The notes: a model not told the origin generated them from the sequence alone. A stretch of DNA of 64,000 bases from Candidatus Omnitrophota bacterium (GCA_018817585.1 JAHITE010000097.1:4400-68399), one strand, 5' to 3'. Shown: positions 18,432 through 24,505, numbered from the stretch's first letter. Numbers and translations are program-made.

Positions 18432-20627
18432 ATGGATGTTAATAATCTTTCAGGGGAATTGCTGTTTGATTTAATTCCCAGCGCTATTTTTTTTGTGGAC
18501 ATAAACCGGAATATAATAAAATGGAATAAAAAAGCAGAGGAAATAACGGGTTATTCTGCATCAGAAGTATTGGGCAAACCCTTTTTTATGTTTGACCAGT
18601 ATTCCTGCGATGAAAAATGCGATTTATATAATAATAACATTAAAAAACCGCTTATTGCCAGGGACTACGCAATAAGAAAAAAGGATGGAACACTTGGTCA
18701 TATAATTAAGAGTGCTGATCTTTGGCGTGATGGTAGTGGGCAAATAATCAGTGGTATTGAAATTTTCGAGGATATTACCGTACGTAAAGAGTTTGAAGTG
18801 AAAATCTGGGCATTAGCGGAGGAATGGGAAAGTGCTTTCAATACATTTACTGATTTAATTGTTATAACTGATATTGATAATAATATTATTAGATTTAATC
18901 AAGCATATTCGCAGGCATTTAATATAGAAATAGATCCATCTATTGCACATGGAAAAATGGAATGTGTGGCGGGGTGTCCGCATCAAAAATCAATTACAAC
19001 AAAGAAAATTGAGACAATAGAAACTTATGATCAAAAATTAGGCAGATTCATTGAGGTTACAACCTGTCCTTTGTTTAATGCTGATTTGCAAGTTTACAGA
19101 ATAGTGCATATTATAAAAGATATTTCCGTAAGGAAAAAAGCAGAACAGCTTAAAGATGATCTTGTCAGTACAGTATCGCATGAGTTGCGTACTCCTTTGA
19201 CTACGATTAGGGAAGCTGTTTCCCAGGTATTGGATGGATTATTAGGGGAAACAACTCCGGAGCAAAGAGAGTTTCTGTCAATGTGTTTACAGGATGTAGA
19301 TAGATTGATGCGAATTATCAATGATTTATTAGATATGTCTAAAATTGAAGCAAAAAGAGTTGATCTGGATAAACAAACAATTGATTTCGTGGGATTAATA
19401 AAACAAGTTCAAAATACTTTTACGCCTCGTTTTAGAGAAAAGCAACTTGAAGGTAAAATCAGCTTTTCGCATGAGCAGATCGAGGTGTACGCGGATAGGG
19501 ATAAAATTATTCAGGTTTTAACTAATTTAATTGGCAATGCTTTGAAATTTACAAGCACGGGATTTGTTGAGATATCCGCGGTAGATAAAGGTGATAAAGT
19601 TGAATGCGCGGTTATTGATTCCGGCAAAGGTATCGCGCGACAGGATATTGCTAAAGTGTTTGAGAAATTTAAACAAGTCGGCAGGGTATACGGGCCAGGT
19701 GAAAAAGGCACTGGTTTGGGGTTAGCGATTGCTAAGGGAATAGTTGATTTACACAAAGGGGAAATCTGGGTGGAAAGTCAAGAGGACAAAGGCACGAAGT
19801 TCATTTTTACTTTGCCCAAGCAAACAGCCGCTGAGTCGATTGTAATTGAATCTATTGACCGGTTGCTTAAATTTTCCAGAAAAGAACAAAAAGAATGCAC
19901 GGTGTTTTTAATATCTTTCCATAATTTTAAGACAATTGAGGAAAAATATGGTAAGGAAAGAATGGATATGATTTTAGATGAAGTATTTACCCAATTTAAA
20001 CAAATAATTGGTTTTGCCCAGCCGATAATTATGAAAAATAAAAGACAATTAGTATTGTTAAGTGATACGGGTAATCAGGATGTAATTATTTGGAAAGACA
20101 AAGTTAAAAAGATAATTAAAGGATCTCTGCTTAAATATGAGGACAACTGGGATACGGCTTTTTCCTGCGGTTATGCTGTTTATGCTCAAGACAGTGATTC
20201 GGCGATTAATTTGTTTGAGCAAGCCCAGAATTCATTGGTGGATGCGCAAAAAGAACAGGCGCAAAAGAAAATTCTTATTGTTGATGATGATGCCGCGGTT
20301 GTGCATCTTTTAAAAGATATTTTAAGCGGTTTTGGTTATCTTAATGTAATCTCAGTTAATGACGGACAGGATGCTTTGGCAAAAATAGAAGAAGATATTC
20401 CGGACATAATGCTGCTGGATATGCAAATGCCGCGGATGAATGGTTATGAAGTTATTGGGCATTTAAAAGAAGATATTCGAACCAAAGATATTCCAATATT
20501 GATAATGTCCGGACAGCCAGTGGCATTTGAGAAGTTAAATGAATATATAACTAAAAAGGCGATTCCGGTTATTGGGAAGCCGTTTGATATCCGCCAACTA
20601 AAAAAACTTTTATGGCTTTTAGCTTAA
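18432..20627 (+). CDS. hybrid sensor histidine kinase: PAS-PAS-HisKA-HATPase - degenerate GGDEF - receiver
   Basis: H-box VSHELRTPLTTI. G-box GTGLGLAIAKGIVDLH. A GGDEF-like segment lacking the GG(D/E)EF motif (ISFHNFKTIEEKYGKERMDMILDEVF...FSCGYAVY). C-terminal REC with LLDMQMP. Confidence 0.85.
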   Translation: MDVNNLSGELLFDLIPSAIFFVDINRNIIKWNKKAEEITGYSASEVLGKPFFMFDQYSCDEKCDLYNNNIKKPLIARDYAIRKKDGTLGHIIKSADLWRDGSGQIISGIEIFEDITVRKEFEVKIWALAEEWESAFNTFTDLIVITDIDNNIIRFNQAYSQAFNIEIDPSIAHGKMECVAGCPHQKSITTKKIETIETYDQKLGRFIEVTTCPLFNADLQVYRIVHIIKDISVRKKAEQLKDDLVSTVSHELRTPLTTIREAVSQVLDGLLGETTPEQREFLSMCLQDVDRLMRIINDLLDMSKIEAKRVDLDKQTIDFVGLIKQVQNTFTPRFREKQLEGKISFSHEQIEVYADRDKIIQVLTNLIGNALKFTSTGFVEISAVDKGDKVECAVIDSGKGIARQDIAKVFEKFKQVGRVYGPGEKGTGLGLAIAKGIVDLHKGEIWVESQEDKGTKFIFTLPKQTAAESIVIESIDRLLKFSRKEQKECTVFLISFHNFKTIEEKYGKERMDMILDEVFTQFKQIIGFAQPIIMKNKRQLVLLSDTGNQDVIIWKDKVKKIIKGSLLKYEDNWDTAFSCGYAVYAQDSDSAINLFEQAQNSLVDAQKEQAQKKILIVDDDAAVVHLLKDILSGFGYLNVISVNDGQDALAKIEEDIPDIMLLDMQMPRMNGYEVIGHLKEDIRTKDIPILIMSGQPVAFEKLNEYITKKAIPVIGKPFDIRQLKKLLWLLA

Positions 20628-20639
20628 CTGAGGATTGAT

Positions 20640-21473
20640 TTGATGAAAATACTGATTGCTGATGATACCCCTGAAATAGTTAGTCTTATGCGGCTTTTTT
20701 TGCAGAAAAAATTACATAATGTTGATGTAGCTGAAAATGGCAAGCAGGCATTGGCGATGATCATAAGCAATAACTATGATTTGGCTTTTATGGATCATAA
20801 TATGCCGGAAATGACTGGATTAGAGCTGGTAAAATATATCAGAACAAATAATATTCCCACGAAAACAATTATCCTGACTGGTTATTCGGGGATGAAGGAT
20901 TTTTTTGCTAAATCCGTAGGCGCTGATGAGTATCTGAGTAAACCTTGTGAACTTGAAGATATCGCGGCAATTCTAGATAAATACGAAACAAACCAGACGC
21001 CTAAAATACAAGAAGCTATAGAGTCAAAAGATGAAATTAAGCCGCAATCTGCTCATGATGATAATCCTCAGGCAAATCAATCGCTAGGAAAGAGAATAAT
21101 GGTTGTTGATGATGAACCGCATATTGTCAAACTCATAGAATTAAGATTAAAAGCAAATGGTTATCAAGTTCAGACCGCGGTTAATGGTAAAGAATGTTTA
21201 GAGAAAATCCCTGATTTTAAGCCGGATTTAATTTTGCTGGATGTGATGATGCCGGTGCTGGACGGTTATAGTACGATTATCGCTATGCGGGAGATGCGTT
21301 TGGCAGAAGATTCTGCTTTTCCTGAAATCCCAGTACTGGTATTGAGCGCGCGCGCGGACAATGTTATTAAAGAATTTATGGAAAAAGAAGAAATAAAAGG
21401 ATATATTTCTAAACCATTTAAATCAGAAGAATTGATGAAAAAAATCGAAGAAATATTAGGTAAGAAAGGGTGA
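20640..21473 (+). CDS. tandem-receiver (REC-REC) response regulator without output domain
   Basis: Two CheY-like domains (KILIADD...AFMDHNMPEMTG and RIMVVDDE...ILLDVMMPVLDG). Confidence 0.8.
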   Translation: MMKILIADDTPEIVSLMRLFLQKKLHNVDVAENGKQALAMIISNNYDLAFMDHNMPEMTGLELVKYIRTNNIPTKTIILTGYSGMKDFFAKSVGADEYLSKPCELEDIAAILDKYETNQTPKIQEAIESKDEIKPQSAHDDNPQANQSLGKRIMVVDDEPHIVKLIELRLKANGYQVQTAVNGKECLEKIPDFKPDLILLDVMMPVLDGYSTIIAMREMRLAEDSAFPEIPVLVLSARADNVIKEFMEKEEIKGYISKPFKSEELMKKIEEILGKKG

Positions 21474-23588: not shown

Positions 23589-24137
23589 GTGAGCGATTCA
23601 GGGGAAGATAAAAATATAAATAAAGAAATGGAAGAAATTTTTGCTGATTTTAAGCAAAAAAAGCAGAAAGCAATACTATCTGAAGAAAATAAGAAGAATA
23701 ATATTTTTCATTCAAAAAAAGTAAGAAAATTCTGTGTTGTTTTTGGCGCGGGAATCAGTGCGATCCTTTTTTTTTACTTACTGGTTCTTGTTTTTGGGCA
23801 AAATAGTCCTTTTACCAGTCCTGAACCTTGGGCAATTGGGCAGAGATTTGCAACTGATTATAAAATTGATGGCTGTATCTTCCGACTTTGGCAGGTAAAA
23901 AGAAGTATTGATTTGTATTATTCTGAGAATAAAGTATTTCCGGAAAGTATGCAGCAATTATATGATGGAGGATATTTAAAGTCTAGATTTGTCTGTCCGG
24001 CCAGCAATAAAGAATATGTGTTTACAATAAAAAACAACCAAAAAGTTTTTGCTTGCCCTGAACCGGAAGCGCATAATCAGGATATTATCAGTATTTATTG
24101 TAAAGTGATAAACTCTCCGCCGGTGATAGAAAGGTAG
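23589..24137 (+). CDS. membrane-anchored protein with a pseudopilin (GspG-like) globular region and no canonical prepilin leader
   Basis: A single TM segment (FCVVFGAGISAILFFYLLVLVF) followed by a YSENKVFPESMQQLYDGGYL...CP motif reminiscent of GspG/pilin cores. Confidence 0.45.
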   Translation: MSDSGEDKNINKEMEEIFADFKQKKQKAILSEENKKNNIFHSKKVRKFCVVFGAGISAILFFYLLVLVFGQNSPFTSPEPWAIGQRFATDYKIDGCIFRLWQVKRSIDLYYSENKVFPESMQQLYDGGYLKSRFVCPASNKEYVFTIKNNQKVFACPEPEAHNQDIISIYCKVINSPPVIER

Positions 24138-24145
24138 TAAGGGTA

Positions 24146-24505
24146 ATGAACAAAAAAAGAAAAAAAAATCAGGGATTTACTTTTGTGGAGATAATTGTTG
24201 TGCTGGCATTGGTGGCGCTGACAGCAGCAATAGCAATGGTGAATCTATTAGCCAGCCGGCGTACAGTAGAATATAATCTATGCATTAATAATCGCGCTGT
24301 TTTAGAACAGGCTGAGCTGTCTTATTTCGCGTATAAAAAAGTCCATACAAATTCGTTTGATGATTTAGTTGTTTGCGGCTATTTGGGCAAGGTTCCTACT
24401 TGTCCTTCACAGGGAGTGTATGCCTGGGTACCTTATGATATTAAAGATCCTGAGTATCAGAAGGAAATCGGATGTTCTTTCCATGCTCCTGCAGCTACCC
24501 AATAG
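24146..24505 (+). CDS. type IV pilin / pseudopilin (prepilin-type N-terminal cleavage-methylation domain)
   Basis: KKNQG|FTFVEIIVVLALVAL class-III signal with Glu at +5. C-terminal Cys pair. Confidence 0.8.
   Translation: MNKKRKKNQGFTFVEIIVVLALVALTAAIAMVNLLASRRTVEYNLCINNRAVLEQAELSYFAYKKVHTNSFDDLVVCGYLGKVPTCPSQGVYAWVPYDIKDPEYQKEIGCSFHAPAATQ

Follow-up and report, generated by a model that had tools for sequence, protein, structure and literature searches.

A PilB-like filament assembly ATPase with a fused C-terminal receiver in a two-component operon of an uncultivated Omnitrophota bacterium

An operon of an uncultivated Omnitrophota bacterium was found to encode a PilB-like assembly ATPase that carries a response-regulator receiver at its C-terminus. 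The operon is probably a two-component-controlled module for a type IV filament assembly motor, with the receiver fused directly to the ATPase, which belongs to a conserved and so far unstudied family of MshEN-T2SSE-REC proteins.

Architecture of the operon and its ATPase

ORF calls placed five tightly packed genes on the + strand between positions 18432 and 24505 of the 64-kb window (i.e., the whole stretch of DNA analysed). In order, these encode a hybrid histidine kinase, a REC-REC protein, the ATPase, a membrane protein (p182) and a small type IV pilin. Intergenic gaps measure 12, -4, 4 and 8 nt, and a purine-rich, Shine-Dalgarno-like stretch was observed at each of the four junctions. Translational coupling links the REC-REC gene with that of the ATPase, and the gap between them becomes +5 nt instead of -4 nt if the ATPase starts at GTG 21479, the start used in the NCBI annotation, which yields a protein of 701 aa. 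The gene order given in an initial annotation of this DNA was reproduced by ORF and Pfam calls, as were, by Pfam, its domain assignments for the kinase, the REC-REC protein and the ATPase with its receiver.

The ATPase gene (21470..23584, + strand; 704 aa) was characterized using Pfam, NCBIfam, conservation among homologues and AlphaFold2. Pfam identified an MshEN domain at residues 60-146 (nt 21647-21907; 72 bits), a T2SSE core at residues 180-563 (nt 22007-23158; PF00437, 448 bits, model positions 3-370 of 370) and, after a flexible linker (residues ~564-584), a receiver at residues 585-697 (nt 23222-23560; Response_reg, 99 bits, E = 2.5e-28). All catalytic and zinc motifs of the ATPase are intact, including the Walker A lysine (K332) and a zinc tetracysteine formed by CPDC (459-462) and CKEC (494-497), i.e., cysteines 459, 462, 494 and 497. 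A full CheY-like receiver had been proposed from the strings DLIVMDVMMP and KPF. Both strings are real, and the first puts the acceptor aspartate at residue 633 (nt 23366-23368), with the remainder of the pocket supplied by D589/D590, T663 and K685 (in AKPF). The Pfam search of 21470-23584 suggested at the time thus confirmed the C-terminal domain, with the Asp, Thr and Lys residues present on alignment.

The best NCBIfam model for the ATPase was PilB (TIGR02538; 619.4 bits, aligned over positions 2-562 of 564 with the N-terminal domain included), and the GspE model (TIGR02533) scored 568.4 bits. As both scores fall below the respective equivalog cut-offs (675.65 and 630.25 bits), the protein is described here as PilB-like rather than as a certified orthologue. 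In the AlphaFold2 monomer model, pLDDT was ~90 for the receiver and below 50 for the linker at residues 566-576 (701-aa numbering); this model (pTM 0.49) does not dock the receiver onto the ATPase with confidence.

Family-wide conservation of the fused receiver

The survey for GspE-REC fusions that had been recommended returned 105 or more clusters, built at 90% identity, each with PF05157, PF00437 and PF00072 and 48-87% identical to the window protein. Most family members come from Omnitrophota; a few records bear the label Elusimicrobia or Firestonebacteria. Across 107 aligned homologues, the phospho-acceptor set of the receiver is invariant (D587, D630 and T660, homologue alignment numbering) or nearly so (D586 and K682, 106/107), as is the MP that follows the acceptor aspartate (invariant). 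Within the motor itself, GPTGSGKT (Walker A) is kept bar single substitutions, E351 and E355 of the Asp box are invariant with D352 present in 106 of the 107, conservation extends to VGEIRD (with the Walker B glutamate) and to H418 of the His box, and none of the four zinc cysteines varies. Mean column identity over the 107 members is the same for the receiver and the ATPase core (0.72 each) and 0.33 for the linker, whose length in the family clusters at 27-29 residues.

In every locus examined the fused ATPase gene lies inside a two-component cluster. A histidine kinase is encoded within three genes of it wherever the flank allows, and a receiver-only gene is found directly upstream in 17 of the 21 fused loci having an upstream flank. 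An independent parallel is provided by Parcubacteria pilus operons, where a single-domain receiver gene sits between pilB and pilT. Given the conserved acceptor residues and the two-component setting of every locus, direct control of the motor by phosphorylation is the best reading of the family.

The same neighbourhoods could also be explained if the fused receiver were mainly a phosphate sink or localisation tag and the kinase acted through the stand-alone receiver, which would bind the motor or another target. This stand-alone gene is the most conserved neighbour of the fused gene, its products form their own well-conserved orthologous family (motif LMLPAGGG), and receivers serving as sinks are known from systems that control pili (PixH, the PixL receiver, PilH). 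However, the fused receiver is conserved like the catalytic core, acceptor residues included, linker length is constrained, and a pure sink would need no tether to the motor. Furthermore, sister proteins hold at this position a PilZ domain, which is a ligand-binding regulatory domain and no sink, and we therefore consider a mere sink or tag improbable.

Direct control of the motor through its receiver also has to be viewed alongside the N-terminal domain. The initial annotation had set this ATPase apart from those regulated through MshEN, which was incomplete, as the protein has an MshEN domain of its own but with a degenerate c-di-GMP motif. This motif was taken from Wang et al. 2016 (PMC5013675), either as the tandem 24-residue RLGxx(L/V/I)(L/V/I)xxG(L/V/I)(L/V/I)xxxxLxxxLxxQ or in its relaxed form. 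The Pfam match covers the C-terminal subdomain, and the N-terminal motifs run SLT... and PIQ... and lack the arginine and glycine. None of the 107 aligned family members matches the relaxed form; judged by sequence, the motif is degenerate throughout the family. In the closest relatives, the sister proteins mentioned above, PilZ is fused at the C-terminus, where the family has its receiver, or is encoded by the next gene. Together with the degenerate MshEN, this arrangement points to the C-terminus as the regulatory input site of the clade.

Phosphoryl transfer and filament genes

The kinase gene (18432..20627, + strand) encodes a PAS hybrid histidine kinase of 731 aa, for which Pfam identified PAS (10-119), HisKA (241-307), HATPase_c (355-464), GGDEF-like (473-609) and receiver (614-726) domains, in addition to a second PAS-like region. 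The H-box histidine is His250 (nt 19179-19181) and the receiver phospho-acceptor is D663. As the highest hydropathy window reaches 1.5, no transmembrane segment is expected and the kinase appears to be soluble. The GGDEF domain was matched at only 36 bits, with KNKRQ (residues 535-539) replacing the active-site motif and no RxxD I-site upstream when read from the sequence. It was rightly called degenerate in the initial annotation and is dead, but the insert is confined to loci closely related to the window and so is not a feature of the whole family.

The second gene (20640..21473, + strand; 277 aa) encodes two Response_reg domains (172 bits in total, Pfam) and no output domain; the ATG at 20643, preceded by GAGGA, is its likelier start. 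The phospho-acceptors are D52 and D201. When aligned to CheY, all four receivers of the module keep D12, D13, D57 and K109 (CheY numbering). Position 87 is Thr or Ser in three of them (Ser in the kinase receiver and REC2), and in REC1 it is Ile by automatic alignment with a Thr (LTG) three residues further on, such that the placement of this Thr depends on the alignment.

A chain from the kinase receiver through the REC-REC protein to the ATPase receiver had been proposed at first. Transfers between aspartates need an Hpt intermediate, and Pfam detected no Hpt (PF01627) among the ORFs scanned in the module and the rest of the 64-kb window, nor was a match obtained by a six-frame jackhmmer search of the window seeded with the Hpt of related loci. 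The receiver-to-receiver relay is therefore unsupported as written, and direct branched transfer from the kinase histidine to several receivers, or a relay via an Hpt encoded elsewhere, is more likely.

Hybrid kinases, the type encoded here, usually signal through Hpt. Accordingly, a true multi-step phosphorelay is quite conceivable, if somewhat less probable than its absence, in which the phosphoryl group would pass from His250 to Asp663 of the kinase, on to an Hpt encoded elsewhere in the genome and then to the ATPase receiver, with the REC-REC protein as a second endpoint or sink. In three related loci (L093, L127 and L129) an Hpt gene of 102-112 aa directly follows the ATPase-REC gene (PF01627, E = 8.6e-12; motif HRYAHSIKG). 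Conversely, most related loci are also without Hpt, as is the window by the searches above, although these domains are short and divergent and the searches covered 64 kb only.

Downstream of the ATPase, p182 (23589..24137, + strand; 182 aa) was characterized by BLASTP, AlphaFold2 and Foldseek as a bitopic membrane protein with a charged cytoplasmic N-terminus of ~45 aa, a single transmembrane helix (~48-70) and a periplasmic, pilin-like head that contains a cysteine and ends in SPPVIER. It matched no Pfam or NCBIfam family, and the G/FxxxE class III signal is absent in p182 and its nine aligned homologues. BLASTP comparison with the neighbouring pilin family gave E-values of 0.006 to 8e-6. Residues 80-182 were modeled with a pLDDT of ~90, and the top Foldseek matches of p182 were all pilins or pseudopilins, including PilA1 and GspG (E = 0.015-0.06), but weak (best E = 0.015, probability 0.99, TM 0.4-0.48). 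The earlier description as a pseudopilin-like membrane protein consequently fits the head, while the missing prepilin signal sets p182 apart from canonical pseudopilins. In each of the five loci that have p182, it is encoded immediately downstream of ATPase-REC.

The type IV pilin reported to follow p182 was also recovered. This small pilin or pseudopilin (24146..24505, + strand; 119 aa) was identified by Pfam N_methyl (E = 4.8e-7) and NCBIfam IV_pilin_GFxxxE, with the class III signal KNQG|FTFVE (G10, E15). Its orthologues come after p182 in L085, L090, L160 and L212, and pilin and p182 lie downstream of the ATPase in five loci, one of which has an ATPase only 48% identical; most family members have no pilin nearby. 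Three consecutive pilin-like genes (45008..47335, + strand; 134, 273 and 353 aa), recognized by N_methyl and ComGE-like N-termini, lie 20 kb from the module. In L090, a trio with weak similarity to these genes (E = 1e-6 to 4e-4, owed mainly to the N-terminal helix) sits immediately upstream of the genes for the receiver and ATPase-REC, and the window trio is tentatively regarded as a possible accessory set. No pilC, pilM/N/O, pilQ/secretin, pilT or prepilin peptidase gene was found in the 64-kb window, and in 10 related loci annotated with Pfam the fused gene has no pilC, pilM/N/O/Q or pilT as a neighbour. Other systems of the GspE/PilB type are present in Omnitrophota genomes (PMC10066038; bioRxiv 10.1101/2023.11.21.568195), and ATPase-REC may be a specialised paralogue among them.

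This gene content raises the question of which filament is served. The ATPase could instead be a signalling or secretion ATPase of a non-pilus type IV filament system, with the small pilin as a pseudopilin, for example a type II secretion-like locus of the kind found beside giant genes in Omnitrophota. Such loci are known from the phylum (bioRxiv 10.1101/2023.11.21.568195), the GspE and PilB scores (568 and 619 bits) are nearly equal and both below cut-off, and the 119-aa pilin is a short one that resembles GspG/ComGC. Moreover, a PilB of Myxococcus is reported to have a signalling role of its own (PMC5544727). We nevertheless hold a non-pilus system to be unlikely, as gspD, gspF and other type II secretion genes were not found near any fused locus and the PilB model matches end to end, N-terminal domain included.

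For a pilus-type motor under receiver control, the following mechanism is proposed. The soluble PAS kinase would sense an intracellular cue and autophosphorylate His250, and the phosphoryl group would reach Asp633 of the ATPase receiver either directly or by way of an Hpt protein from another part of the genome. A flexible linker of ~20 residues joins this receiver to the C-terminal domain of the ATPase, which would form a PilB-type hexamer. Once phosphorylated, the receiver would change its surface or dimer state and thereby switch the assembly of the hexamer, its turnover of ATP or the way the motor docks on the membrane platform. The kinase receiver and the REC-REC protein might serve as competing phosphate sinks or motor-binding modulators, modelled on PixH and the PixL receiver of Synechocystis or DrdR of Xanthomonas. 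The motor would polymerise the co-encoded small pilin with p182 as a lineage-specific partner, and the platform, alignment and secretin parts would be encoded elsewhere.

Comparison with known systems

The closest functional counterparts act in trans: PixG/PixH on PilB1, DrdR on PilB/PilT, and PilG/PilH. In the Tax1 system of Synechocystis, the kinase PixL, which has its own receiver, phosphorylates two more receivers, of which PixG binds the extension ATPase PilB1 only when phosphorylated and PixH, like the receiver of the kinase, is a sink (PMC11181946). There, however, the regulator is a separate PATAN-REC protein under a CheA-type kinase with MCP and CheW, whereas the receiver described here is fused to the ATPase and the kinase is of the classical PAS HisKA type. 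As no CheA, CheW or MCP domains were found in the 64-kb window or the annotated related loci, the module would resemble chemosensory pilus control (Pil-Chp, Tax1, Frz) in operation but lies outside that group.

For the REC-REC protein, the tandem-receiver protein DrdR of Xanthomonas campestris, likewise without output domain, may be a direct precedent, as it interacts with PilB and PilT and stimulates both ATPases (PMC13507683). DrdR is an orphan with an N-terminal pseudo-receiver, whereas the module's protein appears to keep acceptors in both receivers and its gene is coupled to that of the motor. Fusions of GspE/PilB-family ATPases to a two-component receiver or another small signalling domain have been catalogued, namely REC-MshEN-T2SSE (Geobacter metallireducens Gmet_3473) and MshEN-T2SSE-cNMPbind (Wang et al. 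2016, Supplementary Table 4). In that table, the receiver is N-terminal, the proteins are proteobacterial and the C-terminal order MshEN-T2SSE-REC is absent; none of the catalogued fusions has been characterized, and the present family differs in its degenerate MshEN motif.

Control of the PilB-PilZ-FimX or MshE type is similar in placing the extension ATPase under a small signalling domain, and the sister proteins indeed carry PilZ. The proposed input here, in contrast, would be phosphorylation rather than c-di-GMP, with the MshE-type pocket residues (RLG...G...Q) replaced in 107/107 members. NtrC, NtrC1 and DctD each join a phosphorylatable receiver to an AAA+ ATPase that forms rings, whose assembly is controlled by the dimer state of the receiver. 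These proteins could offer a plausible mechanistic template, although they differ in fold (AAA+ versus the PilT/GspE class), in the N-terminal position of the receiver and in their transcriptional output. Overall, a receiver attached covalently to a PilB-like motor would represent hard-wired signal-to-motor control, for which better-studied bacteria use separate proteins.

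A receiver domain fused to a PilB-type ATPase

Five open reading frames, all on the same strand, occupy positions 18432-24505 of the window, with gaps of 12, -4 (or +5), 4 and 8 nt between them and a purine-rich stretch resembling a ribosome binding site ahead of each. The first (18432-20627, + strand) encodes a kinase with PAS, HisKA, HATPase_c, weak GGDEF (36 bits) and Response_reg domains in Pfam, which lacks a hydrophobic segment and is therefore cytoplasmic. The second (20640-21473, +) encodes a protein with two Response_reg domains (REC-REC; receivers REC1 and REC2), and the third (21470-23584, +) an ATPase with MshEN (residues 60-146), T2SSE (180-563, 448 bits) and C-terminal Response_reg domains (ATPase-REC). 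These are followed by a 182-aa protein without a Pfam family (p182; 23589-24137, +) and a small pilin with an N_methyl prepilin signal (24146-24505, +). A scan for promoters and terminators across 18000-25000 produced no more matches than shuffled sequence, and therefore no operon boundaries were drawn from it.

The initial annotation had proposed that a phosphorylatable receiver is wired into a GspE/PilB-family ATPase under a co-encoded kinase, and this main point proved right. Pfam places the receiver at residues 585-697 (99 bits) with its Asp/Thr/Lys set present (D589/D590, D633, T663 and K685 in the 704-aa form). When aligned to CheY, all four receivers of the module keep D12, D13, D57 and K109. 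Position 87 is Thr or Ser in three of them; in REC1 an Ile is automatically aligned to it, with a Thr (LTG) three residues further. The ATPase core keeps its Walker A, Asp box, Walker B, His box and four zinc cysteines. Its best NCBIfam match was type IV-A PilB (619 bits, end-to-end), followed by GspE (568 bits), both scores being under the equivalog cut-offs. The arrangement of ATPase and receiver was modeled with AlphaFold2 as a monomer, which returned domains predicted with confidence, including a (beta-alpha)5 receiver (pLDDT about 90) after a low-confidence linker, but no reliable docking of the receiver in the full protein (pTM 0.49), so that no mechanism can be read from the model.

The kinase has a standard H-box (His250). 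Its GGDEF-like insert, already described as degenerate, carries KNKRQ at the GGDEF position and lacks the RxxD I-site; judged by these residues, it is incapable both of c-di-GMP synthesis and of binding through the I-site. The insert is limited to the window and its close relatives L085 and L212.

Housekeeping genes lie upstream of the module (glycine cleavage system, lipoate ligase and synthase, an amidase and a divergent gpmA-like phosphatase), and a Peptidase_Mx-like gene, an ATP-grasp gene and a SpoU methylase lie downstream. The Peptidase_Mx-like gene and the D-Ala-D-Ala-ligase-like ATP-grasp gene (24644-26685) overlap by 4 nt and also follow the module in L085 and L212; their link to it is probably only synteny among close relatives. 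No pilC, pilM/N/O/Q, pilT, pilD or chemosensory genes were found across the whole 64-kb window, in which the only other genes related to pili are a trio of consecutive pilin-like ones (45008-47335; 134, 273 and 353 aa), whose N-termini are class III-like and which match no further family. Elsewhere, the window contains a NiFe-hydrogenase large-subunit-like gene and HycI protease beside HydF and two radical-SAM genes resembling the FeFe-hydrogenase maturases HydE and HydG (309-9333), and a small cluster with two PTS EIIA-2 domain regulators, HTH_17-EIIA and EIIA-CBS (47549-49907).

Conservation of the fusion and its neighbors

The window ATPase-REC has an identical counterpart at NCBI, encoded by a Candidatus Omnitrophica MAG, and a database survey found its MshEN, T2SSE and Response_reg combination in at least 105 further clusters with 48-87% identity, mostly from Omnitrophota with a few records labelled Elusimicrobia or Firestonebacteria. 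Across an alignment of 107 members (numbered from the 701-aa NCBI start), receiver residues D587, D630 and T660 never vary, while D586 and K682 are each kept in 106. Mean column identity is 0.72 for receiver and ATPase core alike, and the linker joining them is variable in sequence (0.33) and mostly 27-29 residues in length. The observation of a fusion is correct, well above chance.

Other searches were less specific. The C-terminal 205 residues gave 4132 matches at E<=1e-30 in a representative library, mostly multi-receiver proteins, and because the domain scores of such proteins add up, this figure is uninformative on the number of fusions. The matches listed from a genome-collection scan with the family alignment reflected generic PilB and receiver motifs and included no Omnitrophota; among them were three outlying fusion candidates. 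In an Acidobacteria locus (L016, 858 aa) and a Candidatus Sabulitectum locus (L039) a PilB-like ATPase is truly fused at its C-terminus to a receiver, the latter protein (854 aa) carrying two receivers and being preceded by a 1181-aa hybrid kinase. The third candidate, from Saccharibacteria (L032), was rejected as its PilB and receiver are separate genes.

Neighboring genes were surveyed on the Pfam-annotated contigs of ten family members and in fourteen further fused loci, the latter obtained by scanning metagenomes for a junction-specific DNA pattern. A receiver-only gene lies directly upstream of ATPase-REC in 17 of the 21 loci that have upstream flank (1-16 nt away in metagenome loci with a measured gap), and a histidine kinase, usually with PAS and often hybrid, is found no more than three genes away wherever the flank allows. 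No pilC adjoins ATPase-REC in the surveyed fused loci. The upstream single receivers form a conserved family of their own with the motif LMLPAGGG; the window REC-REC was rejected as their orthologue, its identity to them (25-41%) being no better than to the fused receiver. In L090 the upstream receiver has an unusual output, a fused four-helix-bundle domain of the 23S_rRNA_IVP family (PF05635; L090:5103-5933).

In two related genomes (L002:1-7558, L088:1-5561), the receiver and ATPase-REC genes come directly after an operon for a V/A-type ATPase, and another such operon lies less than 4 kb from a PilZ-type relative of the window ATPase (L210:1-3616). In Omnitrophota, F-type ATPases are reported to be co-located with pilus loci (Seymour et al.). 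The adjacency of the V/A-type operon may be meaningful or mere synteny.

In five loci (window, L085, L212, L160 and L090) the next genes after that of the ATPase encode p182 and the small pilin, and p182 was found in none of the other surveyed loci; therefore, the conserved core of the locus is kinase, receiver and ATPase-REC, to which one subclade adds pilin genes. The L090 ATPase is only 48% identical to that of the window, yet p182 and pilin follow it, and a pilin-like trio, only loosely similar to the one at 45008-47335, lies just upstream of this operon as well. The small-pilin orthologue of L160 (166 aa, downstream of p182) ends in more than 40 consecutive Glu.

The description of p182 as a pseudopilin-like membrane protein stands in part. 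It has no NCBIfam family either, but its head is weakly similar to the adjoining pilin family (E 0.006 to 8e-6) and was modeled with a pLDDT of about 90. Its best structural matches were all pilins or pseudopilins (C. difficile PilA1, V. vulnificus GspG), with weak statistics (probability 0.99, E 0.015-0.06, TM 0.4-0.48). Its predicted features are a single transmembrane helix and a conserved, charged N-terminus in the cytoplasm, but the prepilin cleavage motif is missing from p182 and all its homologues. We therefore read p182 as a putative membrane-anchored pilin-like partner. A word-indexed homologue search returned 11 close clusters only, and it was gene position alone that revealed the relatives in L090 and L160, which are 28% identical.

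Possible phosphotransfer routes and proposed C-terminal regulatory input

The initial annotation ordered the module as a relay from the hybrid kinase through REC-REC to ATPase-REC. This chemistry is wrong: phosphate is not known to pass from Asp to Asp between receivers, so a relay needs a histidine phosphotransfer (Hpt) domain, and none was found in the module, the Pfam-scanned ORFs of the window or a six-frame search of the window. We also considered whether p182 has a truncated Hpt as its charged N-terminus and rejected this (~45 residues, no conserved His in homologues, no match to the Hpt profile). In three related loci (L093, L127 and L129), an Hpt gene of 102-112 aa directly follows ATPase-REC; all three products carry the HxxKG motif (HRYAHSIKG or HRYAHSLKG), and that of L093 (112-aa ORF) matches PF01627 with an E of 8.6e-12. 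By these gene contents, the family can probably be wired through a true His-Asp-His-Asp relay. For the window itself, it appears about equally probable that phosphate branches directly from His250 to more than one receiver and that it is relayed via an Hpt encoded outside the 64 kb.

The contrast initially drawn with ATPases regulated through MshEN was incomplete, as the window ATPase has an MshEN domain of its own. Both of its 24-residue c-di-GMP-binding motifs, a pair defined by Wang et al. (PMC5013675), are degenerate (RLG replaced by SLT and PIQ). The relaxed form of the motif was matched by none of the 107 family members and is also missing from the closest relatives without a receiver (P0111 and P0115), which have PilZ as a C-terminal fusion (P0111, L211:7001-9025) or as the next gene (P0115, which together with that gene spans L210:7001-9435). 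A rough neighbor-joining tree (no support values) placed these PilZ-type proteins inside the clade of REC fusions or next to it, and the fusions of Acidobacteria type (L016, L133) and Candidatus Sabulitectum (L039) on separate branches. Together, this suggests that the N-terminal c-di-GMP pocket was lost in one PilB clade, which is regulated through its C-terminus instead, that REC fusion arose more than once, and that the clade can use REC or PilZ interchangeably as its C-terminal input module.

Receivers and pilus motors in other lineages and known systems

An unfused parallel emerged from the metagenome scan, in which about 50 loci (L094, L098, e.g., L098:994-9685, L102, L107, L111, L115, L124, L134, L149, L154 and about 40 more) have a PilB gene of 570-600 aa followed, mostly after 27 nt, by a single-domain receiver gene of ~130 aa. 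These are complete pilus operons in the order pilM, (pilN), pilO, x, pilB, REC, pilT, pilC, pilins and pilD, and their hosts are Parcubacteria (Kaiserbacteria, Taylorbacteria and Paceibacterota). The flanks examined showed no kinase, and no description of the arrangement was found in the searchable literature. The Parcubacteria operons independently show that receivers are built into pilus motor modules of uncultivated lineages.

Taking these observations jointly, we tentatively propose, as a possible rather than a favored reading, a minimal path from kinase to pilus motor that is independent of chemosensory genes, in which the phosphorylated C-terminal receiver would directly gate assembly or activity of the PilB-type hexamer. 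By a wider rule to which this path would belong, the N-terminal c-di-GMP pocket would have been lost clade-wide, with swappable C-terminal REC, PilZ and possibly cNMP-binding modules. The pilin-headed membrane protein p182, not described before, would be a dedicated partner, and pilB-REC-pilT of Parcubacteria would represent the same system without the fusion.

The way in which signalling systems switch the pilus extension motor is a matter of continuing debate, and in Pseudomonas, Synechocystis and Xanthomonas the case for a direct action of receivers on PilB is based on two-hybrid, pull-down and localisation experiments. A natural, widely conserved covalent fusion that joins a phosphorylatable receiver to PilB provides comparative ("Rosetta stone") evidence for the motor itself as the target of the receiver. 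The interest is moderate and lies in making receiver-to-motor control directly testable, since phosphorylation-dependent oligomerisation and changes in ATPase rate are measurable in vitro on one polypeptide, and in the possible swap of C-terminal input modules within one PilB clade. Omnitrophota are ultra-small, probably host-dependent or predatory bacteria, for whose attachment type IV pili are considered central (PMC10066038), and as the fusion family is concentrated in this phylum, the module may control when cells deploy attachment filaments.

Some family members are annotated by NCBI merely as "response regulator" or "ATPase, T2SS/T4P/T4SS family"; the architecture is therefore present in databases, though undescribed and uncharacterised as far as found. 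No C-terminal PilB/GspE-REC fusion was described in the searchable literature, whose scope leaves out most subscription journals, and the Omnitrophota surveys that could be read do not mention it. The architectures of Wang et al. 2016 include REC-MshEN-T2SSE, with an N-terminal receiver (Gmet_3473), and MshEN-T2SSE-cNMPbind, but not the order MshEN-T2SSE-REC. In Synechocystis Tax1 (PMC11181946), the kinase PixL carries a receiver itself, PixG, once phosphorylated, binds PilB1, and PixH serves as a sink. The REC-REC protein DrdR of Xanthomonas (PMC13507683) binds both PilB and PilT, which raises the ATPase activity of the two motors. Together with PilG/PilH of Pil-Chp (PMC11656802), these are functional analogues of the window system, but they act in trans.
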